Assembly: GCA_003647095.1 (NCBI GenBank)
Contig: QMME01000003.1
Location: 1-35,756, forward strand
DNA length: 35,756 bases
Reading direction: 5' to 3'
Origin: Deltaproteobacteria bacterium
GTDB lineage: Bacteria > Myxococcota > B64-G9
The position numbers were made by a program, and so were the translations under genes. The notes below the pieces were generated by a model. That model saw nothing but the letters and a program-made list of their open reading frames with translations. It had not been told where the DNA came from and did not search any database. This document shows positions 6,837 through 29,079 of this stretch, one piece after another. Within the stretch, counting starts at the first letter, position 1; each line of letters opens with the position of its first letter.

Positions 6837-6926
6837 AAGCGGTCGGTCAATCGGGCCTGGCAACCGTGGCAAGCTCCTGACGAGGTGGGGGTGTTGAACT
6901 GCGCCGAGAGGCCAGGTGGCAACCCT

Positions 6927-6935
6927 TGCTATAAT
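6927..6935 (+). promoter_or_regulatory. Extended -10 promoter for the sensor-kinase operon
   Basis: Perfect TGnTATAAT (TGCTATAAT) in an AT-rich intergenic patch about 75 nt upstream of ATG 7009. Confidence 0.6.
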
Positions 6936-7008: not shown

Positions 7009-8532
7009 ATGCCGGAAGACACAGGCTTGCAAGGTGATGGTCGGCCGGATGATTCCACCAGCATCGGCAAGCTGGACAAGATCCAGCAGGCCCTGGAAAA
7101 CAGGCCTCGGGTGAGCATTCGTGCGCGCATCGCCGCGGTGTTTGCCATCCTGTTCGTGCTCATGTGTACCGTCACCGTCTCGGCGGTGCTGCTGTTGCAG
7201 CAGGTGCGGCAGAAGCAGGTGTTTTTCGAGAAGGTCAGCCACTTCGTCTTCGAGTTACAGCAGGCCCGGCGCTTCGAGAAGAACTTCTTTCTGTATGGAA
7301 CCAACCTGCAGGAAGCCATTACCAATGTCCACGTTGCCCGAGCCTACCTGCGCAAGAACCAGTCCGAGATAGAAGCGGTCATCGGCGGGCAGGGCCTGCA
7401 GTCCATGTTGTCGGGTATCGCCAGCTACCAGAAGGCACTGGAGCAACTACTCGACAATCCGGCGCCGAGCCGGGATCGCAAGCGTATCGAGTCCGCCTTG
7501 CGCAAGTACGGTGCGTTGTTGATAAGCGATGCCGAGGATACCCTGGAGCGTGAGCGCCAGGCCATTCACTCCATGCTGCAGACTTCCATAATCGTGGCTC
7601 TGGGCTTTCTGGGATTCATGGTGGTGATGCTGGTTTTTTTCGCCGGCTTCATTACCCAGGCGGTGCTCAGGCCGCTGGGTCGCTTCATGCGTTATGCCGA
7701 TCGTATCGGCTCCGGCGATCTTTCGCCCATCACCCCGGCCCGCAAGTACCGCGACGAATTCAGCAGCCTGGCAATAGCTTTCAACCGGATGCTGCGCGAG
7801 TTGCTGCACCGGCACGAGCAACTGATCCAGTCGGAGAAAATGGCGGTGGTGGGCAACCTCACCTCTGGGATTGCCCACGAGTTGAACAATCCCCTGAACA
7901 ACATCGGCCTGTCGGTGGAGGCCTTGCTGGATGGCTTCGAGGAAATGGAGGCGGGGCAGATCCGTCATATTCTCGAGCAGGTATCCACCCAGGTGGATCG
8001 GGCCAGCGGCACGGTGCGTAACCTGCTTGATTTCACCCGCAAGGAACATCGTGTCTTTACCCGCCTGGACATCAACCAGGCGCTGCAGGAGACACTGAAG
8101 CTGGTAGAAAACGAGCGCCGTTTGGCGGGCGTGGAGTTGTCGTTGCAGCTGGGTGAAGATATTCCGGCCGTGCGGGGAAACCCCCGGGGCATGGAGCAGG
8201 TCTTCCTGAACCTGTTGCTCAACGCCATTCAGGCTCTTGGTGACGGCGGCCGGATAGAAGCCAGCAGCCGCTGCGAAGGCGGGCGGGTGATTGTCGAGAT
8301 AGCCGATGATGGGCCGGGAATAGCGGCGGAACACCTGGACCACATTTTCGAGCCCTTCTTCACCACCAAGGATCCCGGGCGGGGAACCGGCCTGGGGCTG
8401 TCGGTCAGCCAGGGCATCGTCCAGGAGCATGGCGGCACCATTTCCGTGACCAGTCAGCCGGGGCAGGGTACTCGATTCACCATCAGCCTGCCCATTGCAG
8501 AAGCTCTCCCGGGCAAGGAGGAAGGCATATGA
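7009..8532 (+). CDS. Membrane sensor histidine kinase (extracytoplasmic helical sensor, HAMP, HisKA, HATPase)
   Basis: Two TM segments flanking a helical domain ([15 protein letters not shown]), HAMP ([14 protein letters not shown]), H-box [10 protein letters not shown] (His290), N-box [27 protein letters not shown]. Confidence 0.95.
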
Positions 8533-9458
8533 GTTTTTCGGTGTACTTGCCGGTCGCCGGCTGTGCCCTCAACATCTTCCTGTTGCTGGGGCTGGGCGGA
8601 CTGGTAGGGTTCCTGTCGGGACTGTTCGGGGTGGGCGGAGGGTTCTTGCTTACCCCGCTGCTGATCATGATCGGTGTGCCTCCCACCGTGGCGGCCGCCT
8701 CTGATTCCAACCAGATCGTGGCGGCCTCGGCGTCGGGCACCTATGCTCATGCCCGGGCCGGTTCGGTGGATTTCAAGATGGGCCTGCTGTTGCTGCTGGG
8801 CGGCATCGCCGGCGGTTCGGTAGGAGTGGTCTTCATCAAGATGCTGCGGGCCCTGGGAGCTGCTGATTTCGCCATCAAGATCACCTACATCATCATGCTG
8901 GGCGGCGTGGGCAGTTACATGTTCTTCGAGAGTCTTGGCAACCTGCGCGGTACCCGGGCGGTGGCGGCCGGTGGGGACAAATCCCGCCCCTCGGTCTATG
9001 CGCGTCTGGTGGAGGCGCTACCCTGGAAGATCCACTTCCAGCGCTCCCGGGTGACGCTATCGGTACTCATGCCGCTGCTGCTGGGGGTGCTGGTGGGCAT
9101 CCTGGCCGCCATCATGGGCGTCGGTGGGGGCTTCATCATGGTGCCGGTCATGGTTTACCTGCTGCGCATGCCCATGCACGTGGTGGTGGGAACCAGCCTG
9201 TTCCAGATACTGTTCACCTGTATCAACGTGACCGTTCTGCAGGCGGCGGTGAATCACACCGTGGATCTGGTGCTGGCGTTGCTGCTGCTGGCCGGTTCGG
9301 TCATCGGTGCACAGCTGGGTGCCAAGGTGAGCCGGCGCCTGAAGGCCGACCAGCTCAAGATTCTCATGGCCATCATTGTACTGGTGGTGATGGTCAAGAT
9401 GCTGGTGGGACTGCTCCTGGCCCCGGACATAATGCTGGCCTACAAGGGAGGGCACTGA
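8529..9458 (+). CDS. TauE/SafE (TSUP) family membrane transporter
   Basis: Duplicated signature GLFGVGGGFLLTP and AIMGVGGGFIMVP, VVGTSLFQI; about 8 TM; ATGA overlap with kinase stop. Confidence 0.92.
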   Translation: MSFSVYLPVAGCALNIFLLLGLGGLVGFLSGLFGVGGGFLLTPLLIMIGVPPTVAAASDSNQIVAASASGTYAHARAGSVDFKMGLLLLLGGIAGGSVGVVFIKMLRALGAADFAIKITYIIMLGGVGSYMFFESLGNLRGTRAVAAGGDKSRPSVYARLVEALPWKIHFQRSRVTLSVLMPLLLGVLVGILAAIMGVGGGFIMVPVMVYLLRMPMHVVVGTSLFQILFTCINVTVLQAAVNHTVDLVLALLLLAGSVIGAQLGAKVSRRLKADQLKILMAIIVLVVMVKMLVGLLLAPDIMLAYKGGH

Positions 9459-9459
9459 C

Positions 9460-10215
9460 ATGGTGGCCCGGTTCGTGACAGTGTTGCTGTTGCTGGCGGC
9501 ACCGGCTCTGGCGGGCACGGGGTTGACCCTGCAGCCGGAGCGGGTTTCCGCCGGCATGTTCTTCGCCGGTGCCGACGTGGTAGTGCAAGCCCGGGTTCCC
9601 CGCGCCGAGCAGCTGGTGTTCGAGATCAGAGGCCAGCAGAAGACCTATCAGCTCAAGCGCAAGGGCAAGGCGTTGGGCTTGCTGTGGATGAACGTCGGCG
9701 ACCTGGAGATCAAGCATGCTCCGGAGCTTTACCTGCTGGCCTCCTCGGTCGATTGCCAACAGCTGGCTTCTCGGGAAGAGCTGGCCGGTCAGGGAGTAGG
9801 TCTCCCGGCCCTGCGGAGACAGCTGAGCAGCGACGGGCGCCCCCTGACTGCCGAGCTGTTCGAGGACTTCCTGAAGCTCAAGCAGTCAGAGGGCTTGTAC
9901 GAGTTCAGGTCCGGTGTGGTCGAGGTAGATGGAGATGACGCTGGTGACGTGGTCACTACCCGGGTAGTATTCCACCTGCCGGCCAAGGTTCCGCTGGGGA
10001 ACCATCGGGTTAGGGTGCTGGCTTTCAACCAGGGCCGGGGACGGGTACTGTACGAGAAGCCGCTGACCATCGAACAGGTGGGAGCGGCACGCTGGATAAC
10101 GGTGGTTGCCCACAACCATGGACTGCTTTACGGCATCGGGGCGGTGATCATCGCCCTGGTGGTGGGTTTGCTGACCGGCTTTCTTTTCGGCCTGGGTTCC
10201 AAGGGGGCCCACTAG
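9460..10215 (+). CDS. TIGR02186-like exported protein with C-terminal membrane anchor
   Basis: Signal peptide, LKRKGKALGLLWMN and APELYLLAS motifs, C-terminal TM (GLLYGIGAVIIALVVGLL); this family characteristically follows TauE genes. Confidence 0.78.
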   Translation: MVARFVTVLLLLAAPALAGTGLTLQPERVSAGMFFAGADVVVQARVPRAEQLVFEIRGQQKTYQLKRKGKALGLLWMNVGDLEIKHAPELYLLASSVDCQQLASREELAGQGVGLPALRRQLSSDGRPLTAELFEDFLKLKQSEGLYEFRSGVVEVDGDDAGDVVTTRVVFHLPAKVPLGNHRVRVLAFNQGRGRVLYEKPLTIEQVGAARWITVVAHNHGLLYGIGAVIIALVVGLLTGFLFGLGSKGAH

Positions 10216-10227
10216 ATCGGAAGGACC

Positions 10228-12786
10228 TTGTCTCTCTGGAAAAAGTTGTTTTCGCACCCGCCGGCTAGCGAAACCAGCGAGGGCGTGCGTTTGCAGCTGG
10301 AGCGATTCCAGCAAATCGTCCAGCACAACAACAGCATACTTGCCCGCATCGCCGACGCCGGCGAGCAGCTCAGCGGTGAGTACATTTTCGACACCCAGTA
10401 CCTGCGCGACCTGGCCGAGAAGCTGGCCCAGGATGTACGGGCCGTGGTGCAGGCCCTGAACGAGCTCACCGGCGGTCGCTACCAGGAACTGGTAGAGATA
10501 GTATCGGACCTGGATTACCGCTTGCGGGCCATGCTGGAGGGACGTACCGTGACTCCGGCCGCAGCGGTGATCCTGCGGCTGGAAGAAATCGGAACCGAGC
10601 TGGCCGGGGTGGCCGGTGAGAAGATGGCGCGCCTGGGAGAACTGTCCCGCGTACTGGGAATACCGGTGCCGGCGGGAGTGGTGGTTTCGGCCGATGCCTG
10701 CCGGCGCTTCCTGGATGAACTGGGTATCACCACCATCGTCACGGCCAATCGGGAATTGCCCGGCGAGCAACTCCAGCAGTTGGCGGGCGAGTTGCAACAA
10801 CGCATCCTCGACGCCCGCGTTCCGCGTTGGCTGAGCAGGAACCTGCGCCGGGCGGCCCGGAAATTGCTACGGCAAAGCGGGGCTCACAGCCTGGCCGTGC
10901 GTAGCAGCGCCGTGGGCGAAGACGGAGAGGTTTCCTTCGCCGGCCAGTATCACACCGAGCTGGGAGTGTCGCCGGGCCGGATAGAGGACGCCTATCGCCG
11001 GGTGGTGGCCAGCCTGTTTTCCTCCCGGGTAGTGGAATACCGGCAAAGGCATGGCCTGGATCCCCTGGAGGGTTTGATGGCGGTGGGCATCCTGGCCATG
11101 GTGCCGGCGCGTGCTTCCGGTGTCGTCTATACCCTCGATCCCAATTCACCGGCCAGCGATGCCTTGCTGATCGGCGCCGGTTGGGGACTGGGCTGCTCGG
11201 TGGTGGATGGCAGCCAATCGGCGGATCGTTTCCTGGTGTCACGACGTCCTCCCCACGAGATAGTCGGCAGTTCGCTGGCCAGCAAGGAGTTCCAGGTGGT
11301 GACCACGCCGTTGCCGGGTACGCAGCGGCAAGCGGTAGCCCCGGAGCGGCACCAGGTGCCGGCCCTCACTCCCGAGCAACTGGCCGAGCTGGCCGGGCTG
11401 GCCCTGCGCGTGGAGCGCTACGGGCGCTGCGCCCAGGACATCGAGTGGGCCCTGGACGAGCAGGGGCGGCTGCTGCTGCTGCAGGCCCGGCCCCTGCGTG
11501 TTTCTCCGTCCTCTGCCGCCTCGACGGTAACCGTAGACAACGAGCGCTACCCGGTGTTGTTGCAGGGAAGAGGCGAGGTGGCCTGTCGCGGGGTGGGGTG
11601 CGGGCCGGTGTGGATACCGGGAGAACAGGCGTCGTTGAATGATGTCCCGGAACAGGCGGTGGTGGTGAGCCCCACGGCCACCCCGCGCCTGGCTGCCTGG
11701 CTGCCGCGGGCTGCGGCGGTGGTCACCGATGTTGGTAGTGCCACCGGCCACCTGGCGGCGGTGGCCCGGGAGTTTCGTATTCCCACCATTGTCGACACTC
11801 ATGTGGCCAGCCGGGTGCTGGTGCCGGGCGAGATGGTTACGGTTGATGCCGACGAGAACATCGTCTACCGCGGCGAGGTGGAGGAACTGATCAAGGAACA
11901 CCTGCTGCAGGAATCTTCCTTCGAGGAGAAGCGCGAGTTCCGCTTGCTCAGGCGCATGTTGCACCAAGTGGCTCCGCTGAACCTGGACGATCCCTCTTCC
12001 CGGAAGTTTTCTGCCGGCAACTGTCGCACCTACCACGATGTCATTCGCTTTGCCCACGAGATGGCCGTACGCGAGCTGGTAAGGGGAAGGTGGCTGCACG
12101 CGGCGCGGGCCGGGCAATCGGTATACCGGTTGGCGGTCGATATTCCCATCGATCTGCTGATCATAGACCTGGGAGGCGGTGTCGAAGTCCCGCCGGGCAG
12201 GAGCGAGGTGAGCCTGGAGGAGGTAACCAGCGCGCCATTGCTGTTTTTACTGCGGGGGCTGGTCGGCAAGGGGGTATGGGCCACCGAACCGGCGGACATG
12301 GACCTGGGGGGATTCATGTCCAGTGCCACGCGCACTTCCAGCCTGGCCACGCCTCTGACGGTTCAGCCCGAACAGAACGTGGCCATAGTCTCCACCCACT
12401 ATCTCAGCCTCAACCTCAAGCTGGGCTATCACTACAACCTGGTCAACTGTCGCCTGGCGGATGACGCCGGCGAGAATTTCGTGTATTTTAGGTTCGCCGG
12501 GGGAGTGACCGAGTTGGCCAGGCGTTCACGCCGGGCCATGTTTCTGCGTCGCGTTCTCGAGCGTTACGATTTTGTGGTAGAAAGCAAGGGAGATCTGGTG
12601 ATTGCCAGGCTGAAGATGGTCGATGGCGAGCGGCTACGAGGCAGTTTGGAGATGATTGGTCGCCTGGTGGGTTTCACCAGGCAGCTCGATATATACTTGC
12701 GCAGCGACGAATTGGTTGAGGCCTACGTGGAGAAGTTCCTCTCCGCTGCCGGTGGCACCCACGCGGCGGCGGGCACGGATGGCTGA
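10228..12786 (+). CDS. PEP-synthase/pyruvate,water dikinase-like phosphotransferase with non-canonical N- and C-terminal domains
   Basis: ATP-grasp motifs AVRSSAVGEDG.SFAGQY, QDIEWA, LLQARP; swivel domain GSATGHLAAVAREFRIP (His508); no recognisable PEP/pyruvate TIM-barrel motifs in the last ~290 aa. Confidence 0.85.
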   Translation: MSLWKKLFSHPPASETSEGVRLQLERFQQIVQHNNSILARIADAGEQLSGEYIFDTQYLRDLAEKLAQDVRAVVQALNELTGGRYQELVEIVSDLDYRLRAMLEGRTVTPAAAVILRLEEIGTELAGVAGEKMARLGELSRVLGIPVPAGVVVSADACRRFLDELGITTIVTANRELPGEQLQQLAGELQQRILDARVPRWLSRNLRRAARKLLRQSGAHSLAVRSSAVGEDGEVSFAGQYHTELGVSPGRIEDAYRRVVASLFSSRVVEYRQRHGLDPLEGLMAVGILAMVPARASGVVYTLDPNSPASDALLIGAGWGLGCSVVDGSQSADRFLVSRRPPHEIVGSSLASKEFQVVTTPLPGTQRQAVAPERHQVPALTPEQLAELAGLALRVERYGRCAQDIEWALDEQGRLLLLQARPLRVSPSSAASTVTVDNERYPVLLQGRGEVACRGVGCGPVWIPGEQASLNDVPEQAVVVSPTATPRLAAWLPRAAAVVTDVGSATGHLAAVAREFRIPTIVDTHVASRVLVPGEMVTVDADENIVYRGEVEELIKEHLLQESSFEEKREFRLLRRMLHQVAPLNLDDPSSRKFSAGNCRTYHDVIRFAHEMAVRELVRGRWLHAARAGQSVYRLAVDIPIDLLIIDLGGGVEVPPGRSEVSLEEVTSAPLLFLLRGLVGKGVWATEPADMDLGGFMSSATRTSSLATPLTVQPEQNVAIVSTHYLSLNLKLGYHYNLVNCRLADDAGENFVYFRFAGGVTELARRSRRAMFLRRVLERYDFVVESKGDLVIARLKMVDGERLRGSLEMIGRLVGFTRQLDIYLRSDELVEAYVEKFLSAAGGTHAAAGTDG

Positions 12787-12803
12787 AGCCCAGGGAGGTG
12801 CCA

Positions 12804-13202
12804 ATGGCCGACAAGGGAAAGGTGCTGGTGCTGGACGATGAAGAGATCGTCTGTGAAAGGGTGGCTGACAACCTTACCCGCAAGGGTCTCAGCGTGGAGA
12901 CCTTTACCGACAGCCAGCAAGCCATCGACAGGTTGGCCGGCCAGCAGTTCGACGTGGTGGTTACCGATCTGAAGATGAAGGGGCCCAGCGGCCTGGACGT
13001 GGTGCACTTCGTGCGCCAGAACCAGAGCGCCTGTGAAATGATCATCATCACCGGCTATGCTTCCATGGATGCGGCGCGCGAGGCCGAGTATTCCGGGGTG
13101 TACCAGTTCGTCACCAAGCCGTTTCGCATGGAAGATCTCTCCAAGCTGGTACTCAAGGCCGCACGCCGGGCTCGTTCCCGCAAGGGCAAGGTGGCACCGT
13201 GA
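12804..13202 (+). CDS. Stand-alone response regulator receiver
   Basis: VLVLDDE, VVTDLKM (phospho-Asp), IIITG, TKPF; no output domain; SD GGAGG before ATG 12804. Confidence 0.93.
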   Translation: MADKGKVLVLDDEEIVCERVADNLTRKGLSVETFTDSQQAIDRLAGQQFDVVVTDLKMKGPSGLDVVHFVRQNQSACEMIIITGYASMDAAREAEYSGVYQFVTKPFRMEDLSKLVLKAARRARSRKGKVAP

Positions 13203-13585
13203 GCGCCAAGAAGGTCATCCTGCTCGACGATGAGCCCATCGTCGGTGAGCGGTTGCAGCCGGCACTGGAGAAGGCCGGGTTCCAGGTGGAAAGCTACACC
13301 GACAGCCAGCAGGTGGTGGATCGGTTGGCCCGGGAGCGCTTCGACGTGCTGGTGACAGATCTGAAGATGCGCAAGCCGGACGGGTTGGAGGTCATGCGCT
13401 TTGCCAAGCGCCAGTGGCCGGGTATCAAGGTCATCATCATCACCGGCTTCGCCACCGTGGAGACCGCCACCGAGGCCATGCGCGAGGGGGCGGTGGAATT
13501 CATCGCCAAGCCGTTCAAGATCAGGGCCTTGCGCGATCTCATCTTGCGGATAACAGCGGATACGGAACAATCTCCCCCGTCCTGA
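13199..13585 (+). CDS. Stand-alone response regulator receiver
   Basis: ILLDDE, LVTDLKM, IIITG, AKPF; GTGA overlap with previous stop. Confidence 0.93.
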   Translation: MSAKKVILLDDEPIVGERLQPALEKAGFQVESYTDSQQVVDRLARERFDVLVTDLKMRKPDGLEVMRFAKRQWPGIKVIIITGFATVETATEAMREGAVEFIAKPFKIRALRDLILRITADTEQSPPS

Positions 13586-13635
13586 TTGACCCGGAAACAA
13601 GCGCCGTCGGGGCGGGAGATTCTCCGCCGGGGTGG

Positions 13636-14313
13636 TCAACTCCCGGTACCGGGCGGGCGCAGGCGGCCGGCATGAATGTCTGCGCGGCGCGCGGGCAGGT
13701 CGGCCGAAGCCCGTTCCAGGTGGCTGGCCATGAGTATGCTTACCCCCTGCCGTTCGACCAGGTTCCTGATCAGCTCGAGCACCCGCTCGCGGACAACCTC
13801 GTCGAGCGAGGCGGTAACCTCGTCGAGCAGCAGTCCCGGGCAGTCGAGCACCAGGGCCCGGGCCAGGGCCACCAGCTTCTGCTCGCCCACAGAGAGCCGG
13901 TCGGCCCGCCGGCCGGCCAGGTGGGCGATACCCAGCTGCTCGAGCACGGCCCGGGCGCGTTGCCGCCGTTGCGGGCGCGGCACCCCGCGCAGGCGCAATC
14001 CGTAGGTGGTGTTACGCAGCACCGAGGTGGCGAACAGGTAGGGTGTTTGCTGCACCAGGGCCAGGCGCCGGCGTAGCTGCATGGGGGCCGGGGCCGTCCC
14101 CCGGTGAAAGGGTTTTCCCTGGAGGTGGATCGTTCCGGCCTCGAGATCGAGCAAGCCGGCCGCTGCCAGGATCAGGGTGCTCTTGCCGCTGCCGTTCTCA
14201 CCGCAGAGCAGGACCAGTTCGCCGCGACCCACGCTCAGTTCGTCGATGTGCAACACCGGCTGGCCGCCCCGCCGGACGCGCAGGTCCCGTATCGACAGGA
14301 AGGGTTCGCTCAT
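13636..14313 (-). CDS. tupC: Tungstate ABC transporter ATP-binding subunit
   Basis: Real start MSEPFLSIRDL at 14313 (overlaps tupB stop); GENGSGKST, Q-loop VQQTP, LSVGEQK, LLLDE, H-loop ASH. Confidence 0.82.
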   Translation of the reverse strand: MSEPFLSIRDLRVRRGGQPVLHIDELSVGRGELVLLCGENGSGKSTLILAAAGLLDLEAGTIHLQGKPFHRGTAPAPMQLRRRLALVQQTPYLFATSVLRNTTYGLRLRGVPRPQRRQRARAVLEQLGIAHLAGRRADRLSVGEQKLVALARALVLDCPGLLLDEVTASLDEVVRERVLELIRNLVERQGVSILMASHLERASADLPARRADIHAGRLRPPGTGS

Positions 14314-15002
14314 TTTTCCCCCCGCCGGCTCTGCAACATGCTGGCGGTCAGGTTGACCGCCAGGGCCACAACCAGCAGCACCACTCCCAGGGCCACCCCG
14401 CGGGCGAACTCTCCCTTGCCGGTCTCGAAGGCGATGCCGGTGGTGATGTTGCGGGTGGTGCCGCGAATATTGCCACCCACCATCATGGAGATACCCACCT
14501 CGGCGAACACCCGCCCGAAACCGGCGGCCACGGCGGCCACCAGGGCGGTGCGCATCTCCAGGGCCACCACCCGGGCAGCGCGCAGCCGCCCACCGCCCAG
14601 GCCCAGCACGGTGTGGCCGATACGGGGATCGGCCCGTTCCACGGCGGCCGCGCACAGGCCCACGATGATGGGAAAGGCCAGGATCACCTGGCCGACTACC
14701 ATGGCACCGCGGGTGTAGAGCAGGTTCAGCTCTCCCAGCGGACCGCGCCGGGTCAGAAACGCGTAGACCAGCAGGCCCACCAGCACCGTGGGCAGGGCCA
14801 TCAGGGTGTTGGCCAGTCCCAGCACCAGCCGGCGGCCGCGAAAGCGCCCCAGACCCAGGGCCAGCCCGGCCGGCAGGGCCAGCACGGTGGCCAGGCCGGT
14901 CGAGGTAAGCGACACGCTCAACGACACCCACACCGGACCCCATACCTCCGGGTCCAGCCGCAGCAGCAGGGAAATTCCCTGGACGGTTCCTTCCGCGATC
15001 AT
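14310..15002 (-). CDS. tupB: Tungstate ABC transporter permease
   Basis: NTLMALPTVLVGL, RRGPLG, AGFGRVFAEVGISMMVGGNIRGTTRNITTGIAFETGKGEF typical of TupB. Confidence 0.9.
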   Translation of the reverse strand: MIAEGTVQGISLLLRLDPEVWGPVWVSLSVSLTSTGLATVLALPAGLALGLGRFRGRRLVLGLANTLMALPTVLVGLLVYAFLTRRGPLGELNLLYTRGAMVVGQVILAFPIIVGLCAAAVERADPRIGHTVLGLGGGRLRAARVVALEMRTALVAAVAAGFGRVFAEVGISMMVGGNIRGTTRNITTGIAFETGKGEFARGVALGVVLLVVALAVNLTASMLQSRRGEK

Positions 15003-15009
15003 GACCCGG

Positions 15010-15897
15010 TTACGGGGACGGCGCCGGAGGAGGCGGCGTCACGGAGTTGCCGGCCGGCGCCGGCGGTTGCTGGCCGGGGGCCAGGGGGTGAAAGAGGACC
15101 CTGCCGCCCACCTTGAAGCCGGCGATCATCTGGCGGGCCCGGGGAGATTGCAGCCATCCCAGCAGGGCCAGTGCCTCGGGCAGGTGGGCCTGGGGATGCT
15201 TGACCGGGTTTACGGCCATGAACGAGTAGGGGTTTTGCAGCCGGGGATCGCCTTCCACCAGTATCACCAGGTCGAGCGCATCTTCGGCGCTGAGGAAAGT
15301 GGCCCGGTCGGTCAGGCAGTAGGCAGACTTCTCGTCGGCCAGGTTCAGGTTGAGACGCTGGCCGCGACCGGACTCCAGATACCAGCCTCCCCGGGGGTGT
15401 ACCCCCGCCGCCTGCCACAGGCGCAGCTCGGCCCGGTGGGTTCCCGACTGGTCACCGCGGGAGACGAAAGTGGCGGACGCCCGGGCGATCCGGGCCAGTG
15501 CCGCCACGGCATCCCGGCCCCGCACGGCGGCGGGGTCGGCCTGTGGACCCACCAGCACGAAGTCGTTGAACATGATGGTGGCGTGGTGGATGCCGAAGCC
15601 TGCGCCGACGAACTCGTCCTCGGCCTGGCGATCGTGCACCAGCACGGCATCGACGTCGCCGTTGCGGCCCAGTTGCAGCGCCTGGCCGGTACCCACGGCC
15701 AGCACCTGTACCGAGATGCCGCTGCGGGCCTCGAACGGTGGCAGGATGGTCTTGAGCAGGCCGGTGTTGTCCAGCGAGGTAGTGGAAGCCACCCGCAGCA
15801 CCCGGCCAGCACAGGGGCAGTCTCGAGGCTGTTGCCGGCAGGAACAGAGCAGGAGCGCCAGCGCCACGCTGCTTGCCAGTGCGAGTTTTCTTTTCAT
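15010..15897 (-). CDS. tupA: Tungstate ABC transporter substrate-binding lipoprotein
   Basis: ASTTSLDNTGLL (TTTS-like), VGTGQAL, VLVH, MFNDFVLVGP, SRGDQSGTH, LTDRATF; SD AAGGAGG. Confidence 0.92.
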   Translation of the reverse strand: MKRKLALASSVALALLLCSCRQQPRDCPCAGRVLRVASTTSLDNTGLLKTILPPFEARSGISVQVLAVGTGQALQLGRNGDVDAVLVHDRQAEDEFVGAGFGIHHATIMFNDFVLVGPQADPAAVRGRDAVAALARIARASATFVSRGDQSGTHRAELRLWQAAGVHPRGGWYLESGRGQRLNLNLADEKSAYCLTDRATFLSAEDALDLVILVEGDPRLQNPYSFMAVNPVKHPQAHLPEALALLGWLQSPRARQMIAGFKVGGRVLFHPLAPGQQPPAPAGNSVTPPPPAPSP

Positions 15898-15981: not shown

Positions 15982-18939
15982 ATGAAAAAAAGGCGCCGAC
16001 AGGCCCGAAACAAGCGGGGACAGGCCCGGGTGCTTGTTACGCTTTTTCAGCTAGTTGCGTTGCTTGCCGGATTGTTGCCGACGGCCTGCCGGCATCCGCT
16101 CGTGTCGGGAACCGACGCGGGCCGGCAGGATGGAGAAGGCGGAGAAGGCGGGGACGGAGGTATGGAAGACAGCGACGGCGACTGGAAGCCGGTGGACGAT
16201 GCCGCAAGTTGCCCGGGACTGGTTGACATCGTCGATGCCGGCACACTGTTGCTTCATCTTGGTGCGGTCGATGTGTACCAGCGGTTTTTCTCCCCGGGAA
16301 TCGTGCAGTTGCGCTACCGTCCGGCCGGCAGTCCGCCCCCACGGCGACCTTCCTGGGCGGTGGTGGCCGAACCCGGGGATGAGGATGTTTCTATAGTATT
16401 TTCAGAAGACTGCCGGCAGGTAGAGGTGTCCAACGACACCTTGCAGGTCGTTGCCTCGGCGGACGGCGCCGTACGGGCCTGGCAGCGTCTTGATGACGGG
16501 GAGTTGGAAAACATCTTCACGGCCAGCGGGCCGGTGCAGTTTCCCGACGCCGGCGGGGTGGTGCTTTCCGTGGTGGGCCCGGAGGGGGAGCATGTCTATG
16601 GCCTGGGCGAAAAGACCGGTCCGCTCGACCGGCGCGGCCGGCACCTGGTATTCCGCAACACCGATCCCCTGGCCGGAGGGGGCGACTACACTCCGGATAG
16701 CGATCCCCTCTACCAATCCATACCTTTTTTCATCGGCTTACGCCGGGGACAGGCCCACGGTGTTTTCCTGGACAACAGCCATCGGCTGGTGATCGACCTG
16801 GCGCGTGATGTGGCTGGCGAGTATCGCCTCGAGGCCGATGGCGGAGACATGAACCTCTTTCTACTGGCCGGGCCGGAAATGGCGCAGGTGCTGGAGCGCT
16901 ACACCTGGCTCACCGGAAGGATGCCTCTGCCACCGCGCTGGACACTGGGATACCACCAATGTCGCTGGAGCTACTGGCCGGATGATCGCGTTCGTCAGGT
17001 AGCCGAAGAATTTCGCAGTCGGGCCATTCCCGCCGATGGTCTCTGGTTGGATATAGACTACATGGACGGCTTCCGTTCCTTTACGTGGGATCCGGCGGGA
17101 TTTTCCGATCCGGCCGGCCTGCTGGCCGATCTTGCTTCCCGGGGATTCAAGACCACGGTGATAATCGACCCCGGCCTGAAGCACGATCCGGACTGGGATG
17201 TTTACCAGCAGGGGATTGCCGGAGACCACTTGTTGCACAGTCCCGACGGATCCGTTTTCGTGGGCGAGGTGTGGCCCGGCGAGGCGGTGTTTCCAGACTT
17301 TTCCTCGCCGGCCGCGCGTGACTGGTGGGCCGGGCTGGTACCGAGACTGATCCGAACAGGGGTGCGGGGCCTGTGGATCGACATGAACGAACCGGCGTCA
17401 TTCAGGGCCGTAGACGGATACACCGTTCCGGACGAGGTCCTGGCCCGGGGCGAGGGGGAAGCTACTACCATGGCCGAGGTACACAACGTCTATGCCCTGC
17501 TCATGGCCAAGGCCACCCGTCAGGGAATGGAACAGGCCGCTCCGGACCGGCGTCCTTTTATCCTCACCCGGGCGGGATTCGCCGGAATACAACGCTACGC
17601 CGCCGTCTGGACCGGGGATACCCCGTCGAGTTGGCCCATGTTGCGGACCAGCCTGTCGCTCGTGTTGTCTCTGGGGCTTTCCGGGGTTGCCTTCTGTGGC
17701 AGCGACGTCGGGGGGTTTTCCGGCGGGGCCACGCCGGAGCTGTTTGCGCGCTGGCTGGAACTGGGCTCGCTGAGCCCATTCTTCCGCGGCCACGTGCAGA
17801 CGGGGGCTCCCGACCAGGAACCCTGGGCCTTCGGAGTCGAGGTCGAGGACATCAGTCGCTCGACAATCGGCCTGCGCTACCGGCTGCTGCCCTACTTGTA
17901 TTCCCTGTTTCAGCGGTCCGCGCAGACGGGGGAGCCGGTACTGGCTCCGCTGCTGTTTCACTACCAGCACGATTCCGCCACCTGGGAAATCGAGGATCAG
18001 GCCATGCTGGGTCCCTGGTTGCTGGTGGCGCCGATCATGGAACAGGGGGCCCAGAGCCGTACCCTGTATCTGCCCGCGGGGCGGTGGTACGAGTTGCATT
18101 CCGGCCGCCTGTACCAGGGACCGGCCACCATTACCCGGCGGGTTTCCCTGGCTGCCTTGCCCGTGTTCGTGCGCTCGGGTGCCATCCTGCCGCTGGCGCC
18201 GCTGTTGCAGTGGAGCGACCAGGCACCGCTGGACCGACTGGAGCTGTGGCTGTATCCCGACCGGCAGGAATCGCTTTTTTATCTCTACGAAGACGACGGT
18301 GACTCGACCGCCTACCGGAGTGGCGAATTCTGCCTCAGCGAATACCGCCTGCTACGCACCGCCAGCGGAGCCTCTCTGGTGGCCCGCCGGCGGGGAAACT
18401 ACCATCCCCCGACACGCCCGCTGGTGATTCGTGTTCGTCCCCTGGCCAGACCCCCGGTGGCGGTGTCTGTCGATGCCGTGGCTCTCGCGGAAAGGTCGAG
18501 CAGGGAGGATCTGGAAAGTGTCGGGCGGGGCTGGTGGCTTGACGAAAACGATGGCTCCCTGTGGGTAATTTTCGAAGACCGGGCTGAATTCACGCTGGAG
18601 CTGACCTACGAAGGGGATGAATCGCCATCTCCCACGGTGTGCATGCCCTTTTCCGTGACCGTTCCCGCGGCAACGCCCGCCCAGGAGGGTATCTACCTGG
18701 CACTGTCCACGAACGGCTGGCAGCAGCGGTTCCTGGGCCCGGTGGGGCAAGGCGGTCGCGTGGAGGGTTGTCTCGAGGTTCCGCGTGGTGAGTGGTTCGA
18801 GTACAAGTACACCCGTGGCGACTGGTCAACGGTCGAAAAGTGGACCGGCTGTCTCGAAGCCAGTAACCGCTACGCCCTGGGTGTGGCCCTTCCGGTAAAG
18901 AACGATACCGTGGAGACCTGGGCCGACTGGTGCCAGTAG
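15982..18939 (+). CDS. GH31 alpha-glucosidase-like enzyme, probably exported, with C-terminal CBM20-like module
   Basis: YGLGEK, LYQSIPF, GYHQCRWSY, WLDIDYM, WIDMNEP (nucleophile), WTGD (acid/base), DVGGF, YEDDG; tail FEYKYTRGDW..VEK...NR. Start codon uncertain. Confidence 0.93.
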   Translation: MKKRRRQARNKRGQARVLVTLFQLVALLAGLLPTACRHPLVSGTDAGRQDGEGGEGGDGGMEDSDGDWKPVDDAASCPGLVDIVDAGTLLLHLGAVDVYQRFFSPGIVQLRYRPAGSPPPRRPSWAVVAEPGDEDVSIVFSEDCRQVEVSNDTLQVVASADGAVRAWQRLDDGELENIFTASGPVQFPDAGGVVLSVVGPEGEHVYGLGEKTGPLDRRGRHLVFRNTDPLAGGGDYTPDSDPLYQSIPFFIGLRRGQAHGVFLDNSHRLVIDLARDVAGEYRLEADGGDMNLFLLAGPEMAQVLERYTWLTGRMPLPPRWTLGYHQCRWSYWPDDRVRQVAEEFRSRAIPADGLWLDIDYMDGFRSFTWDPAGFSDPAGLLADLASRGFKTTVIIDPGLKHDPDWDVYQQGIAGDHLLHSPDGSVFVGEVWPGEAVFPDFSSPAARDWWAGLVPRLIRTGVRGLWIDMNEPASFRAVDGYTVPDEVLARGEGEATTMAEVHNVYALLMAKATRQGMEQAAPDRRPFILTRAGFAGIQRYAAVWTGDTPSSWPMLRTSLSLVLSLGLSGVAFCGSDVGGFSGGATPELFARWLELGSLSPFFRGHVQTGAPDQEPWAFGVEVEDISRSTIGLRYRLLPYLYSLFQRSAQTGEPVLAPLLFHYQHDSATWEIEDQAMLGPWLLVAPIMEQGAQSRTLYLPAGRWYELHSGRLYQGPATITRRVSLAALPVFVRSGAILPLAPLLQWSDQAPLDRLELWLYPDRQESLFYLYEDDGDSTAYRSGEFCLSEYRLLRTASGASLVARRRGNYHPPTRPLVIRVRPLARPPVAVSVDAVALAERSSREDLESVGRGWWLDENDGSLWVIFEDRAEFTLELTYEGDESPSPTVCMPFSVTVPAATPAQEGIYLALSTNGWQQRFLGPVGQGGRVEGCLEVPRGEWFEYKYTRGDWSTVEKWTGCLEASNRYALGVALPVKNDTVETWADWCQ

Positions 18940-19085: not shown

Positions 19086-19114
19086 TTGACAGGTGCTCCG
19101 CCGCGGGCTAGCGT
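19086..19114 (+). promoter_or_regulatory. Sigma70-type promoter of Lon-like gene
   Basis: TTGACA-17 nt-TAGCGT, about 40 nt upstream of ATG 19153. Confidence 0.55.
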
Positions 19115-19152
19115 GCGGAAAGCAAGGGGTATCCGTGGTAATGGGAGGATGC

Positions 19153-21582
19153 ATGGAATTGAAATCGGCAACCAACTCGAAGAGACTGCGCATTTCGCCG
19201 AAACGGCTGCGCCGGCGCATCAACCCCCGCCAGCTTCCCGGCCCCAAGGCCTACGGCAAGCATCGCACCCACATCATTGGCCAGGAACGGGCCATCGAGT
19301 CCATGCAACTGGGACTGCGCATCGAAAGCCCCGGCTACAACGTCTTCGTGTCCGGCCCCTCCGGCAGCGGCAAGATGACCACCACCAGGCACGTACTGGC
19401 CGAGTTCAAGCAGCCGCGGCGGCCCCTGCGCGACTATGCCTACGTGCAGAATTTTCTCGAGCCCGATCGACCGCGCCTGCTGATACTGGATCCCGGAGAC
19501 GGTGCCCGGCTCAAGAAAGGCATGGAGCGGCTGATCAAGTCGCTGCAGCGGGAATTGCCCAAGGCCCTGGGCACGGAAGCCTACCACAAGGAACGCGATC
19601 GCCTGCTCAACGATTACCAGGGCCAGGAGCACGAACTGGTAACGGCCTTCCAGCGCAAGGCCCGGCGCCAGGGCTTCGCCCTGGTGGAGATGCAGGGTGG
19701 ACCAACGGTCGAACACGATGTACTGCCGATAGTCGATGGCGAGCCGGTCCCCCTGCCGGTCCTGGAAGAACAGGAGGCGGAGGGCAAGCTCAGTAGCAAG
19801 CGCTTCAGCCAGTTGGCCAAGCGCCACCAGCGCCTGCGCTCGGAAATGGAACAGGTGGCGCGTCGTACTCGTTCGCTGGCCCGCGAGTTGAACAGCGACC
19901 TGGAAGCCCTCGACCGCCGGGTGGGCGGCGTGGTCATCGACAACCTCATCGAGGAACTGGCGGAGCAGTTTCACAACGAGTCGGTGAGTGACTACCTGGA
20001 CGAGGTCAAGGAGTTTCTGCTGGATCGCATTCCCGCCCTGGCCGGCCGGCTGGAAGACGGCGAGGAGGGTGCCGGCAGCGGCGAACTGATGGTGGATCCC
20101 TTCGCTCCCCTGCAGGTCAACGTGGTGCTTACCAATGCCCACCGCAAGGGCTGCCCGGTGGTGTTCGAGCCGTCACCCACGGTGGCCCGCCTGCTGGGCA
20201 CCATCGAGCGCAGCACCGACGATTCCGGCCGGGTGGAGGTTGACTTCATGAGCATCAGGGCCGGATCCCTGCTGCGGGCCAACGGGGGGTTCCTGCTGCT
20301 GAAGGCGGACGATCTGCTCGGGGAGCCGGGAGCCTGGAAGATCCTCAAGCAGGCCCTTTCCACCGGCCAGCTGGAGATTCGTCCCCCCGAGGGTCCCATG
20401 GCCATGATCAGCACCGGACTCAAGCCGGATCCCATCCCCCTGGACGTGAAGATCATTCTCCAGGGCGACGACATGCTCTACCGGGCTCTTTACCTGGCCG
20501 AGGATGATTTCAAGAAGACCTTCAAGGTGAAGGCGGAATTCGATGATGTCATGGAGTGTCGGGCCTCCACCCTGGAGAAGTTCCTGGCCTTCGTGCAGCG
20601 GGTGGTACAGGAAGAAGATCTGGCCCACCCCAACCGCCGGGCGGTGGCCGAACTCGTCGAGGAGATGATGCGCGAGGCCGAGGACCAGCAGAAATTGAGC
20701 ACCCGTTTCCGGGTGGTGGCGGATCTGCTGCGCGAGGCCACCTACTGGGCGCGCCGGGCCGGGCGCCGAACCATCACCCGGGCCGAGATCGCCCGGGCCA
20801 TCAGCCAGCGCCGCCGTCGTGTCAACCTGGCCGAGGAAAAATACCGCGAGGACATCGAGCGGGACGTGGTGATGGTATCGACCAGCGGCAGCCGGGTGGG
20901 CCAGGTAAACGGCCTGGCCGTGTTCGACCTGGGAGACTACAGTTTCGGCAAGCCCTGCCGGATAACCGCCTCGGCCGGCGTGGGTCGCCAGGGAGTGGTC
21001 AATATCGAGAGGGAGGCCGGCCTGTCGGGCGCCATCCACGACAAGGGGGTGTACATCCTGGGAGGTTTCCTGTCCGAGAGGTTCGGGCGCGACTTTCCGC
21101 TGACCCTGGATGCGCGGATATGCTTCGAGCAGAGCTACAGCGAGATCGACGGCGACAGTGCCTCCTCCAGCGAGGTCTTCGCCCTGCTCAGCAGCCTGGC
21201 CCGGGTGCCGCTGTCGCAGGCCATTGCCGTCACCGGTTCGATCAACCAGCGGGGCCAGCTGCAGCCCATCGGCGGAGTGAACCAGAAGATCGAGGGGTTC
21301 TTCGACATCTGCCAGGCCCGCGGGCTGGATGGAAGTCACGGGGTGATCATCCCCCGGGGCAACCTGCACAACCTGATGCTGCGCCACGAAGTCGTCGAGG
21401 CCGTGCGGCGAGGCCGCTTCCACGTCTGGGCGGCCGCCACCGTCGACGAGGGAATGGAGTTGCTGACCGGGGTGCGGGCGGGCCGGCCGGGGCGCAAGGG
21501 CGTCTATCCGCCGGGTACCCTCAATCGCCTGGTGGCCGATCGCCTGCGCCGCATGGCCGAGACTTACCGTGATTTCAGCTGA
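19153..21582 (+). CDS. Lon-family (LonC-like) protease with AAA-like domain
   Basis: IIGQERA, GPSGSGKMT, IRAGSLLRANGGFL, FKVKAEFD, VGQVNGL, FEQSYSEIDGDSASS (catalytic Ser), IGGVNQKIEGF (catalytic Lys). Start 19153 has SD GGAGG. Confidence 0.92.
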   Translation: MELKSATNSKRLRISPKRLRRRINPRQLPGPKAYGKHRTHIIGQERAIESMQLGLRIESPGYNVFVSGPSGSGKMTTTRHVLAEFKQPRRPLRDYAYVQNFLEPDRPRLLILDPGDGARLKKGMERLIKSLQRELPKALGTEAYHKERDRLLNDYQGQEHELVTAFQRKARRQGFALVEMQGGPTVEHDVLPIVDGEPVPLPVLEEQEAEGKLSSKRFSQLAKRHQRLRSEMEQVARRTRSLARELNSDLEALDRRVGGVVIDNLIEELAEQFHNESVSDYLDEVKEFLLDRIPALAGRLEDGEEGAGSGELMVDPFAPLQVNVVLTNAHRKGCPVVFEPSPTVARLLGTIERSTDDSGRVEVDFMSIRAGSLLRANGGFLLLKADDLLGEPGAWKILKQALSTGQLEIRPPEGPMAMISTGLKPDPIPLDVKIILQGDDMLYRALYLAEDDFKKTFKVKAEFDDVMECRASTLEKFLAFVQRVVQEEDLAHPNRRAVAELVEEMMREAEDQQKLSTRFRVVADLLREATYWARRAGRRTITRAEIARAISQRRRRVNLAEEKYREDIERDVVMVSTSGSRVGQVNGLAVFDLGDYSFGKPCRITASAGVGRQGVVNIEREAGLSGAIHDKGVYILGGFLSERFGRDFPLTLDARICFEQSYSEIDGDSASSSEVFALLSSLARVPLSQAIAVTGSINQRGQLQPIGGVNQKIEGFFDICQARGLDGSHGVIIPRGNLHNLMLRHEVVEAVRRGRFHVWAAATVDEGMELLTGVRAGRPGRKGVYPPGTLNRLVADRLRRMAETYRDFS

Positions 21583-25800: not shown

Positions 25801-26658
25801 ACAGTGGATCGCGGTCCCGTTTTCTGGCAGGTGCCACACGCCCAGACCAACCACGTCATCGCCTACCTGCCCGCCCAGCCGGGCATCGAGCACGAGCTGT
25901 TTCTCGATACCACCGCCGAGTACAACCATTTCCTGCACTTGCCGGAACGCGACCAGGGGGTACGCGCCCTGGTCCTGGAGGGCCAGGGCTACCGCCTGGT
26001 CGACACCCCGGTGCTTCCGCCTTCCGCCTCGCAGCTGCTGTTTACCGCCGACGCCTCCCTGGAGGGTGACGACCTGGTCATGCAGGTGCGCGAGAGCTGG
26101 AGCGGCTGGTTGGCGGCCTGGTTCCGATCGCACCTGAACGTGGAAGGCAAGCGCCGCGAGTTCATGGCCGGACTGCTCAACGTTCGTTTCCCGGGGGCTT
26201 CCCTGTCCGGCGACCACTACCGGGGCATTGACGACCTGGGAAAACAGGCCGGGATAGATTACCGCTTGCTCCTGCCCGGCCGGGCTCGCCGCGAAGGCAA
26301 GCAACTACGACTCAATCTTTTCTGGTTCGACAAGCTGGTGGAGCGCATGACTCCGCGGCCGGAACGCCACGGGGACGTGTTCCTGCCCTACCGGGCGGAA
26401 AGAATATTGCGGGTGAAGCTGCACTTGCCACCCCGGGTGAGGCCGCTGGTACTGCCCCCACCGGTGAACATCGACAACGACCTCGTCGGCTTCTCCCAGT
26501 CATGTTCCGAGAAGGAAGGAGTCCTGGAATGCCAGCGCCGGCTGGTGATCAAGCCCCGGCGCATACCCCGCGAGCGCTACCAGGAATTCCGCCGGCTGTG
26601 TCACCTTATCGATCAGGCCGAACGTGTGGAAATAGTCTTGCCCGACGGCACTCAATGA
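22888..26658 (+). CDS. Large lipoprotein: TPR repeats + beta-sandwich insert + DUF3857 + transglutaminase-like core
   Basis: Lipobox LAAG|C; TPR-like helices; WMVVGPF...NRLLVKV insert; triad motifs GDCKDKATLL / NHVIAY / FLDTT. ATG 22888 follows SD GGAGG. Confidence 0.85.
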   Translation: MRYRFLPLLLALLAAGCLRPATSRPEGATALPAVEPRALLERGIESFVGPGRLPAARSLFARAAGLEPRLREAWWWLAWSDVLLGRSERAFGSFLQAAGDYAHPADALALQRAFALLSGRRQAERLRDVLRRAVSAPGTHPLVRARARWLLGRLLRRLGRFDRARQEFARLGFVSEWMVVGPFANDQNSGFDTPYGPEREPLDYRREFAGKLQRVKFRPVERLDYDGSVNLSALLDPDSWSCAYLASHLSSPRAMPAVLRLGVGRAVKVWLNGRLLLSSDDVERAGFDQLAVSAGLRRGWNRLLVKVCQRNGPWLLRLRLTDPRGRPLRLPATNKLQRVASGADRQSRPVPPRQLADVLEQQLKGRGSWLQRLLARWQIEQGFYRRAADRLDRLAATSSGCRPLLALLSHRAQQAAGRDSLALKALDQTTCAATVPGLLLARAAYESSRGRYQRAMRLLRRSRLELDGEGDAARLWTRLLVERGFAVPARQRLERRLQHRPDDDDSWRLLAEVAGTLDLRRLVLRSRRKVLALRPDLPAAYNALVRLARQRGDNGRALQLLDRQARAFPCSLNTRLLRARVLLAVGREPAARKQLERLLRLSPDDWRVYRLLGQLHDRHGRRRLALQAFQRALELKPEASFLRDYVDFLEDRQDPAFERYGLGADQVQQILTRLPPLSAYPEAEAVFLLDDEVTHVFADGSAHHLVHQAYLVRTASARARFNRFAVPSGPSFRLEVAETILPDGSRREATAVRRGAIYFPSLEPGVVIHVAYQYESASLSWMQDHFAMQFNFQGRFPSLRPRWVVVTPPGKQVQILVRGQGIEHRRQSLGAERVDVFTARDMPMLHAEPLAVPERERRAMVLLTTVPSWKELARWQNSLIVDQFESDQAIREQTEKLVADAGSVLAKVEALYGFVARKIRYLNHDVGIFGKKPNKAINVFENRFGDCKDKATLLIAMLRLVGIEAAYAGIRTVDRGPVFWQVPHAQTNHVIAYLPAQPGIEHELFLDTTAEYNHFLHLPERDQGVRALVLEGQGYRLVDTPVLPPSASQLLFTADASLEGDDLVMQVRESWSGWLAAWFRSHLNVEGKRREFMAGLLNVRFPGASLSGDHYRGIDDLGKQAGIDYRLLLPGRARREGKQLRLNLFWFDKLVERMTPRPERHGDVFLPYRAERILRVKLHLPPRVRPLVLPPPVNIDNDLVGFSQSCSEKEGVLECQRRLVIKPRRIPRERYQEFRRLCHLIDQAERVEIVLPDGTQ

Positions 26659-28847: not shown

Positions 28848-28876
28848 GGTTGCCTCCAGCCGCCAGTGAGTGAGGC

Positions 28877-28965: not shown

Positions 28966-29079
28966 GGCATGCCGCTGGTAGTTGCCCGGGTGGCGCTAAC
29001 CGGGTAACCTGGCTACAAATGGTCCGAAACCCGGAGTCCTCGACTCACCGGCACCGGGAAGGAAGGATCCGACGAGATC

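Follow-up and report, generated by a model that had tools for sequence, protein, structure and literature searches.

A cassette of six genes at positions 7009-13585 (+) of contig QMME01000003.1 from a Deltaproteobacteria bacterium (assembly GCA_003647095.1; the 35,756 nucleotides (nt) analysed are called the window here) is a real module, shared by bacteria of many phyla and with signs of transfer between them. The genes encode, in order, a membrane histidine kinase, a TauE-type permease of the TSUP class, a PF09608 protein (AlphTM), a dikinase resembling phosphoenolpyruvate (PEP) synthase (PEPS; the window's enzyme is called PEPSL) and two single-domain receivers (RR1 and RR2). We infer that the cassette is a self-contained signalling-and-transport module without transcriptional output. 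The reading that we favour, at somewhat less than an even chance, is that the kinase and receivers act post-translationally, turning on a dikinase that the permease needs in order to function, which would make the whole a protein-level switch on the permease complex. The open reading frames (ORFs) and their key residues, with lengths in amino acids (aa) and transmembrane segments as TM, are as follows.

7009-8532 (+): kinase ORF, 507 aa; by hydropathy TM1 at residues 44-62, periplasmic helical domain 63-193, TM2 194-212
7876-7878 (+): codon of kinase His290, context GIAHELNNP
8529-9458 (+): TauE ORF, 309 aa
9447-9455 (+): C-terminal end of TauE, read from the sequence as ...AYKGGH
9460-10215 (+): AlphTM ORF, 251 aa; by Pfam and its AlphaFold2 (AF2) model a signal peptide, then in the periplasm an Ig-like beta-sandwich carrying a helical insert, a C-terminal TM at 225-243 and a short basic tail
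10210-10212 (+): codon of AlphTM His251, the C-terminal residue, from the sequence
10228-12786 (+): PEPSL ORF, 852 aa, TTG start; by Pfam and alignments a helical N-domain 1-110, ATP-grasp 129-435, mobile domain 474-543, C-domain 548-852
11749-11751 (+): codon of PEPSL His508, motif SATGHLA
11869-12783 (+): PEPSL C-domain, residues 548-852, in place of the PEP/pyruvate barrel
12798-13202 (+): RR1 ORF, 134 aa, GTG start, with an alternative ATG at 12804
12966-12968 (+): codon of RR1 Asp57, single-domain receiver
13199-13585 (+): RR2 ORF, 128 aa, GTG start
13358-13360 (+): codon of RR2 Asp54, single-domain receiver

The six frames are packed as an earlier, sequence-only reading of the window had described them. 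The kinase and TauE genes share an ATGA overlap (8529-8532) and the receiver genes a GTGA overlap (13199-13202), with 1 nt between TauE and AlphTM and 12 nt between AlphTM and PEPSL. The gap from PEPSL to RR1 is 11 nt when counted to the GTG at 12798 and 17 nt when counted to the ATG at 12804, the start used in that reading.

Homologous loci were collected with a pattern-plus-tblastn scan of one genome per species, which gave 51 loci, all in metagenome-assembled genomes (MAGs). Counts of gene presence were restricted to loci with enough flanking DNA and to genes on the enzyme's strand in the window's order. Failure of the genes to co-occur elsewhere had been named in the sequence-only reading as grounds for abandoning the idea of a system; they do co-occur, at 40 of 46 loci for AlphTM, 40 of 44 for TauE and 35 of 42 for the kinase, in the conserved single-strand order kinase-TauE-AlphTM-dikinase-receiver-receiver. 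Titles and lineages assign these loci to eight phylum labels (Gemmatimonadota, Acidobacteriota, Myxococcota, Thermodesulfobacteriota, Armatimonadota, Pseudomonadota, Binatota and Eiseniibacteriota). The loci with missing partners include four distant PEPSL paralogues (L050-L053) and two with displaced genes (L025, L049), and two Maridesulfovibrio loci have their kinase at a greater distance upstream. When the 47 loci with at least 900 nt of downstream DNA were scored for receivers, 29 had two and 11 had one, always of the RR2 type; none was counted in six, one of which (L024) actually has one of RR2 type, and the last is frameshifted. TauE is the best conserved gene of the cassette (60-86% identical to orthologues of other phyla), and identity to the window is 46-88% for RR2, 51-68% for RR1, about 50% for the kinase and the enzyme and about 38% for AlphTM.

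The history of the cassette was followed in a FastTree phylogeny of 77 PEPSL proteins, in which 50 form a clade with 100% support. The TauE and AlphTM context is seen in 47 rows of this clade, and the other three are truncated contigs. In this clade the phyla are mixed, with an Armatimonadota and a Chromatiaceae row forming a pair and an Acidithiobacillales row placed among Acidobacteriota, which is a sign of transfer across phyla. Of 41 genomes related to the window's, five have the PEPSL C-domain and only three have PF09608, namely those with the orthologous dikinase; this patchy joint presence indicates that the cassette is accessory and moves as a unit. A link to sulfate reducers, named in the sequence-only reading, was borne out: in the family around a Maridesulfovibrio MAG (G001, Desulfovibrionaceae) 83 of the 121 genomes carry the C-domain, at 1-9 copies each and usually beside kinase/receiver pairs, and a Desulfovibrio cluster described below (PMC4001038) has related genes. 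Other genomes of the G001 family carry an orthologous set of TauE (65-69%), AlphTM, PEPSL (35-38%) and an RR2-like receiver, sometimes with two more PEPSL genes.

Several loci elaborate on this arrangement. In four loci of the G001 family (L063, L064, L065, L076) three tandem PEPSL genes stand behind TauE-AlphTM, with one receiver after the first, and a divergent kinase and receiver pair is also carried. A TauE paralogue (27-32%), a bare receiver and a kinase (39-41%) lie directly beside the cassette in five others (L010, L012, L034, L042, L046), and in L074 a PEPSL gene has a TauE paralogue 3.7 kb away. A seventh partner, a cytidylate-kinase-like P-loop protein of about 270 aa with a BON domain, was seen in 32 of the 51 loci (45 copies), just 3' of RR2 and mostly on the opposite strand (loci L003-L047; for example L003:13704-14546 and L011:13394-14206), often with a DUF202 membrane protein and a second copy. 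It does not adjoin the window's cassette; the window's genome has four paralogues elsewhere (contigs C204 (1083-6449), C115 and C237), two of which lie on either side of a second TauE paralogue (30% identity), one without a dikinase.

The signalling half of the cassette is canonical in its kinase domains and receiver residues. Pfam finds HAMP, HisKA and HATPase_c domains in the kinase and Response_reg as the sole domain of each receiver. The phosphorylation sites proposed in the sequence-only reading (His290, His508 and the two receiver aspartates) were read directly, and the pocket residues are D13/D14/D57/T85/K107 in RR1 and D10/D11/D54/T82/K104 in RR2. The kinase thus has the H-box His and HATPase_c of a classical two-component system, and the receivers have its acidic pocket, Thr and Lys. 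The periplasmic domain of the kinase is conserved across 32 orthologues from several phyla, including a motif at residues 86-98, and from this conservation the signal is probably the same in all cassettes.

In the cassette's own receivers Pfam shows neither a DNA-binding nor any other output domain, and a DNA-binding Pfam domain was found in 0 of 62 receiver-containing ORFs in the 51 loci; a DNA-binding cognate regulator, which might have accounted for the kinase, is thus not brought along by the homologous loci. Eighteen receiver ORFs in the 51 loci exceed 170 aa, 12 of them being dikinase-receiver fusions. In other genomes the orthologue of RR1 is joined to the C-terminus of the dikinase, in frame in 12 of the 29 two-receiver loci, and the fusion is seen in 22 among the best 120 database homologues. 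An RR2-type receiver is present in nearly all cassettes, at 59-87% identity across phyla. A complex prediction for the enzyme with a receiver, as suggested in the sequence-only reading, was run for whole PEPSL with RR2 and gave an ipSAE of 0.46 against 0.00 for the best control, with a partner pLDDT (the per-residue confidence of the model) of at least 81 and agreement between runs in at least 87% of contacts. With the mark that was used, 58 of 80 solved complexes pass, and so do 2 of 110 mismatched pairs; at scores of 0.60 or less, the cases that pass are just 7 of these 80 and both mismatches.

Two observations touch on the regulators of other loci. A protein with PAS, sigma-54-activator and HTH_8 domains and no receiver domain is encoded upstream of the kinase in 6 of the 51 loci, on the opposite strand in all seven copies (e.g. 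L009:592-2157 (-)), and may be a transcriptional layer in some lineages. At L037:13028-15643 (+) a single frame of 871 aa joins a receiver domain to a molybdopterin oxidoreductase; this may be two genes that the ORF call merged.

The enzyme combines familiar and novel parts. Its ATP-grasp domain (PPDK_N, PF01326, 232 bits, residues 129-435) is followed by the mobile domain (PEP-utilizers, PF00391, residues 474-543), in which the His508 motif TGH is invariant in all 24 aligned homologues; the 110-aa helical N-domain is also conserved in the alignment. Past residue 543 Pfam finds nothing, the PEP-utilizers_C barrel included. The NCBIfam PEPS models NF005057 (285.6 against a cut-off of 598) and TIGR01418 (269.5 against 739.75) fall short and end at profile position ∼476 of ∼790, and the alignments to PEPS models and solved structures stay within about residues 108-562, those to the structures 8a8e, 9dae and 2ols ending at about residue 557 (E down to 4e-56). 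The possibility of an ordinary PEP synthase, raised in the sequence-only reading, is therefore not borne out: judged by its domains, PEPSL is not a PEP synthase despite the database name 'pyruvate, water dikinase'. The NCBIfam models RedH, PigC and Rph match its ATP-grasp part (Rph 190.7 against a cut-off of 999), and its mobile domain resembles the swivel domain of Enzyme I of the PEP phosphotransferase system (PTS; E 3e-7 to 1e-4). The parts of the cassette belong to known superfamilies, and PEPSL adds a new form to the swivelling dikinases. A long form of 1,486 aa (L094) has an N-terminal extension without a Pfam match.

The C-domain (residues 548-852) is 50-63% identical in several hundred proteins of ∼850 aa, and its profile matched 1,517 cluster representatives of 1.84 billion at E≤0.001, of which 755 at E≤1e-30; in full-length profile matches it lies at the C-terminal end. 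Some 30 positions do not vary, and many of these are His, Arg, Asp or Cys; paralogues of 32% identity keep them as well. They include C599, H603, D604, R607, H610, E611, D647 and H735, an FRFxGG stretch, R765/R766/R768/R769 (RRxRR) and Q819-L-D821. A profile search of the PDB gave no match at E≤10. Fold searches with its model gave a best E of 0.025 in Foldseek and a best Z of 5.7 in VIA-align over 48,161 chains, which is below the usual noise, and the ESM Atlas returned only the domain's own family. Reading the domain as a new fold is provisional, because the model is mediocre and missing matches do not prove one. An AHE motif and some low-probability Foldseek rows for the ATP-binding domains of CheA and DesK had prompted the idea of a degenerate histidine-kinase core; hhalign with the HisKA+HATPase_c profile gave a probability of 0.13 and no support, though the model is mediocre, and the idea was dropped.

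The plainest alternative to a functional system is a chance neighbourhood, in which a gluconeogenic PEP synthase, a sulfite exporter and a two-component pair lie side by side and the DNA-binding partner of the kinase is encoded elsewhere. The database name of the enzyme agrees with this, and since the window's genome is only 70% complete an unlinked regulator is possible. However, the PEP/pyruvate barrel is missing and the PEPS scores are as low as given above, the gene order is kept across all eight phylum labels, RR1 is fused to the enzyme, presence among relatives is patchy but cassette-wise, and the 51 loci lack a DNA-binding receiver. This explanation is extremely improbable and already close to refuted.

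The transport half consists of two membrane proteins. TauE matches PF01925 over its full length (170 bits against a gathering threshold of 32.6, profile positions 1-237 of 237). The sequence-only reading had assigned the third gene to TIGR02186, and this held only at the level of the broader family: the protein is a member of Pfam PF09608 (Alph_Pro_TM, 152.3 bits against a gathering threshold of 24.5), but at 85.5 bits it does not reach the cut-off of the NCBIfam hypothetical equivalog TIGR02186 (255.25), and its sequence thus places it as a relative rather than a member of that family. Its AF2 model is good (pLDDT 90.7) and retrieved generic Ig-like sandwiches only (Foldseek best E 1.1e-3, VIA-align best Z 8.7), with no functional hint. 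The domain layout is the build of a single-pass auxiliary subunit and in homologous loci AlphTM always comes after TauE; with its predicted structure, AlphTM is likely to be an auxiliary subunit of the TauE permease.

Both proteins end in histidine. A final His closes 48 of the 51 AlphTM sequences. A terminal GGH is seen in 36 of the 48 orthologue-like TauE sequences as against 5 of 21 TauE paralogues, three of these five being themselves paired with an AlphTM. The C-terminal His on both permease subunits is cassette-specific. Both tails should be cytoplasmic, because of the positive-inside rule. The transported anion is, by family analogy, most likely a sulfur oxyanion. Assignments within the family are difficult: D. 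vulgaris has nine TSUP permeases, for which functional predictions were judged not feasible by Marietou et al. (2018, PMC5840216). With regard to the 'highly conserved TSUP clade B' of that paper, genome G046 has no close TauE orthologue, the best matches there being 29-32% identical.

The only experimental evidence near the cassette comes from the 'nitrate cluster' of D. vulgaris and D. alaskensis (DVU0251-DVU0245 and Dde_0597-0605; Korte et al. 2014, PMC4001038). There, transposon hits in the genes for TauE, a small hypothetical protein, a PtxB-like protein, the kinase, a bare receiver and a "pyruvate phosphate dikinase" raise fitness at 100-150 mM nitrate, and mutants in TauE, the receiver and the PPDK-like gene are all nitrate-resistant, whilst a D. 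vulgaris mutant in the dual-specificity phosphatase is still nitrate-sensitive. In Table 3 of the same source the D. vulgaris kinase is given as a pseudogene and the receiver mutant has a strong phenotype; the authors' guess was a leaky thiosulfate transporter.

Locus L082 of genome G046 has the gene content of that table, and its PEPSL aligns with the window's along its whole length, N- and C-domains included, at 32% identity (E 4e-100). Common to both systems are a permease of TauE type, a kinase with a HAMP domain, a single-domain receiver and a PPDK_N plus mobile-domain enzyme with both extra domains, and in the nitrate cluster the loss of permease, receiver or enzyme gives one shared phenotype, which makes them a genetic unit (PMC4001038). 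The L082 cluster differs in its sCache/PAS kinase, single receiver and gene order. From sequence comparison, the nitrate cluster is a distant paralogue of the cassette and not an orthologue.

In the mechanism that we favour, the membrane kinase would sense a periplasmic signal through its helical domain and autophosphorylate on His290, as is known for the family, and would pass the phosphate to Asp54 of RR2 and probably also to Asp57 of RR1. The receivers would then bind PEPSL and turn the enzyme on or off, a step for which the gene fusion speaks and which is otherwise inferred. By PEPS/PPDK chemistry PEPSL would move the beta-phosphate of ATP onto His508, and the swivel domain would carry it to an acceptor held by the C-domain. 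This phosphorylation would be needed for anion transport by TauE-AlphTM, as the genetics of the distant paralogous cluster suggest, and would most likely fall on the permease complex or on a protein bound to it, with the cytoplasmic His tails of TauE and AlphTM as candidate docking or acceptor sites.

Four reasons, all indirect, led us to prefer a protein-level switch to phosphorylation of a solute. The C-domain invariants persist across paralogues that have different partners; in the nitrate cluster, losing the enzyme or the receiver has the same effect as losing the permease, here towards an anion that is not the native one; that cluster also has a protein-type phosphatase working against the enzyme and receiver; and the permease subunits bear the cassette-specific His tails. 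The presence of one to nine C-domain copies per genome with shared invariants, beside kinase/receiver pairs, is likewise fitted better by one common chemistry than by many solutes.

The competing scheme is a transport-coupled phosphorylation of PTS type, in which TauE-AlphTM would import an anion X that the C-domain phosphorylates (ATP + X + H2O -> AMP + X-P + Pi), trapping or activating the solute, whilst the kinase and receivers only tune the enzyme. PEPS/PPDK have the same order of ATP-grasp, swivel and acceptor domain, and in them a small molecule is bound by the last of these; the C-domain is as rich in invariant Arg, His and Asp as would be expected of an oxyanion site, and the permease linkage is strict. 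The nitrate phenotype of the paralogous cluster would also fit the futile phosphorylation of an analogue (PMC4001038). However, up to nine paralogues per genome keep the C-domain invariants despite different or absent permease partners, where many solutes should have altered the binding residues. The receiver fusions and kinase/receiver neighbours indicate signalling, a protein-type dual-specificity phosphatase adjoins the enzyme in the paralogous cluster (L082), and no conserved downstream metabolic enzyme lies beside the cassette. We consider solute phosphorylation unlikely, though it deserves serious attention. Between the two options offered in the sequence-only reading, solute phosphorylation and a post-translational relay, the evidence leans to the relay and decides neither.

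A different direction of phosphate flow was also considered, in which PEPSL is a second phospho-donor for the receivers (ATP to His508 to Asp57/Asp54) and the receivers gate the permease directly. Fusion of RR1 to the enzyme in 12 of 29 loci, receivers adjoining most paralogues, the likeness of the swivel domain to PTS Enzyme I, a protein phospho-donor (E 3e-7), and the weak modelled contact of PEPSL with RR2 (0.46 against 0.00 for the control) would all agree with it, as would the strong receiver phenotype in D. vulgaris despite the kinase pseudogene (Table 3, PMC4001038). Against this, the large and highly conserved C-domain would be left without a role, and profile comparison gives no support for its relation to a histidine-kinase core (the hhalign value of 0.13; the model of the domain is mediocre). 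A fused receiver more often marks a regulated enzyme, and we know of no His-to-Asp transfer from a swivel domain. Such a donor role for PEPSL seems to us distinctly improbable.

Several points weigh against the favoured protein-level switch as well. The phosphoryl acceptor is a guess. The AF2 model of the C-domain has a pLDDT of 73, and the PEPSL-RR2 prediction gives weak support for a contact, with no interface reported. The terminal His is missing from 12 of the 48 orthologue-like TauE copies, some of which are frameshifted or truncated calls. The nitrate cluster belongs to another PEPSL clade, with identities in L082 of 32% for PEPSL, 27% for TauE and 34% for the receiver; it has an unrelated 195-aa membrane protein in place of AlphTM, and an additional phosphonate-type periplasmic binding protein and dual-specificity phosphatase, neither of which Pfam finds in the window's cassette. 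Its genetics may not carry over to the cassette and, by analogy, would also fit a toxic or futile phosphorylation of the imported anion.

A more specific version of the protein-level switch can be drawn, an ATP-driven phospho-His relay onto a secondary transporter. The phosphate would pass from His508 through the C-domain to the tails of TauE (...GGH) and AlphTM (...GH) as acceptors or docking points and so open the permease, with the kinase-charged receivers gating the relay; this would amount to a gate of PTS type, made of an ATP-grasp dikinase and a two-component system, that has moved as one cassette from phylum to phylum. In this full form the proposal is a long shot.

The literature search, which lay outside subscription papers and supplements, found no paper on the mechanism of the module, none for TIGR02186, Alph_Pro_TM or PF09608, and no described system that brings together a swivelling dikinase, receivers without output domain and a TSUP permease paired with an Ig-like protein. 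TauE, a PEP-utilizing protein, a response regulator and a histidine kinase came up together only in Korte et al. (PMC4001038). The D. vulgaris genes DVU0145-0150 are a syntrophy-induced 'transmembrane transport' set regulated by sigma-54 and DVU0151, with no PEPS-like gene named in the accessible parts of the two sources (PMC4265775, PMC4641369).

Each half of the cassette can be set beside better-known systems. PEP synthase (PpsA) and pyruvate phosphate dikinase (PPDK) share the ATP-grasp and mobile phospho-His domains in the same order, with the TGH histidine invariant, but PEPSL lacks the PEP-utilizers_C barrel and has instead a 300-aa C-domain without detectable relative, has the extra 110-aa helical N-domain, and sits in a signalling and transport context rather than in gluconeogenesis. 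The PTS likewise ties an Enzyme I-related swivelling phospho-His domain genetically to a membrane transporter, and the logic, a phosphate relay to a transporter or its cargo, could be alike. The cassette would, however, draw its phosphate from ATP through an ATP-grasp domain rather than from PEP through a barrel, its transporter is a TSUP permease, and it would be controlled by the two-component proteins. Among the 26 scanned proteins of the window none belongs to an HPr or EII family, and only the mobile domain matches Enzyme I.

CheY-like systems of single-domain receivers resemble the cassette in their canonical HAMP-HisKA-HATPase kinase and full DD/D/T/K receivers. The output must run through contacts between proteins, as that of CheY does. 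In the cassette the presumed target is an enzyme and permease pair in the same operon, and one receiver is often fused to the enzyme. Rifampin phosphotransferase and the PigC/RedH-type enzymes share the ATP-grasp plus swivel-His chemistry; their swivel domain is C-terminal, after the substrate domain, whereas that of PEPSL is central, and the PEPSL scores lie far below the cut-offs.

TSUP/TauE permeases are among the commonest bacterial membrane proteins without a firm function, and for one clade of them the module would supply a regulator, an accessory subunit and a partner coupled to energy. It would also mean a correct, different name for hundreds of proteins annotated as "PEP synthase". 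A two-component system without transcriptional output, wired to an enzyme and a transporter, would be a clear case open to direct test, and the C-domain may represent a new fold with a new phosphoryl-acceptor chemistry. The paralogous cluster decides the nitrate sensitivity of sulfate reducers and thus bears on the control of oil-field souring (PMC4001038).

Upstream, the cassette follows the ATP synthase genes atpHAGDC, which end at 6836, and the extended -10 element that the sequence-only reading had placed ahead of the kinase was read directly.

6927-6935 (+): extended -10 TGcTATAAT, 73 nt 5' of the kinase ATG, without a -35; putative promoter

This site is the only match to TGNTATAAT in the window (0.05 expected; at least one in 5 of 100 shuffles). 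A two-hexamer promoter scan omits it for want of a -35, and returned one site elsewhere in the window, where 1.1 were expected. A sigma-54-like element TGGCA-N6-TTGC at 6917-6929 (+) overlaps the -10; its GG-to-GC spacing is 10, as compared with 12 in the -24/-12 consensus, and it was dropped. The terminator scan gave none after RR2, where the fold of 13583-13645 has a z of -0.67.

Downstream, an ABC transporter at 13636-15897 (-) converges on the end of the cassette and consists of an ATPase, a 230-aa permease without a Pfam match at 1e-5 and a PBP_like_2 binding protein. A GH31 glycosidase (15982-18939 (+)), a LonB/LonC-like AAA protease (19093-21582 (+)) and a glycogen-phosphorylase-like protein with DUF3417 (26652-28970 (-)) look ordinary and unrelated to the cassette. 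DNA of the window occurs in hydrothermal-vent and marine-sediment metagenomes, and the runs listed for it include none of RNA. At 31761-34439 (-) a formate-dehydrogenase-like molybdopterin protein with 2Fe-2S, NuoG-type 4Fe-4S and molybdopterin domains is cut into two in-frame ORFs by a single TGA at 33402-33404, in the context ...HCARL-TGA-HSSTVAGL..., which resembles a selenocysteine site.

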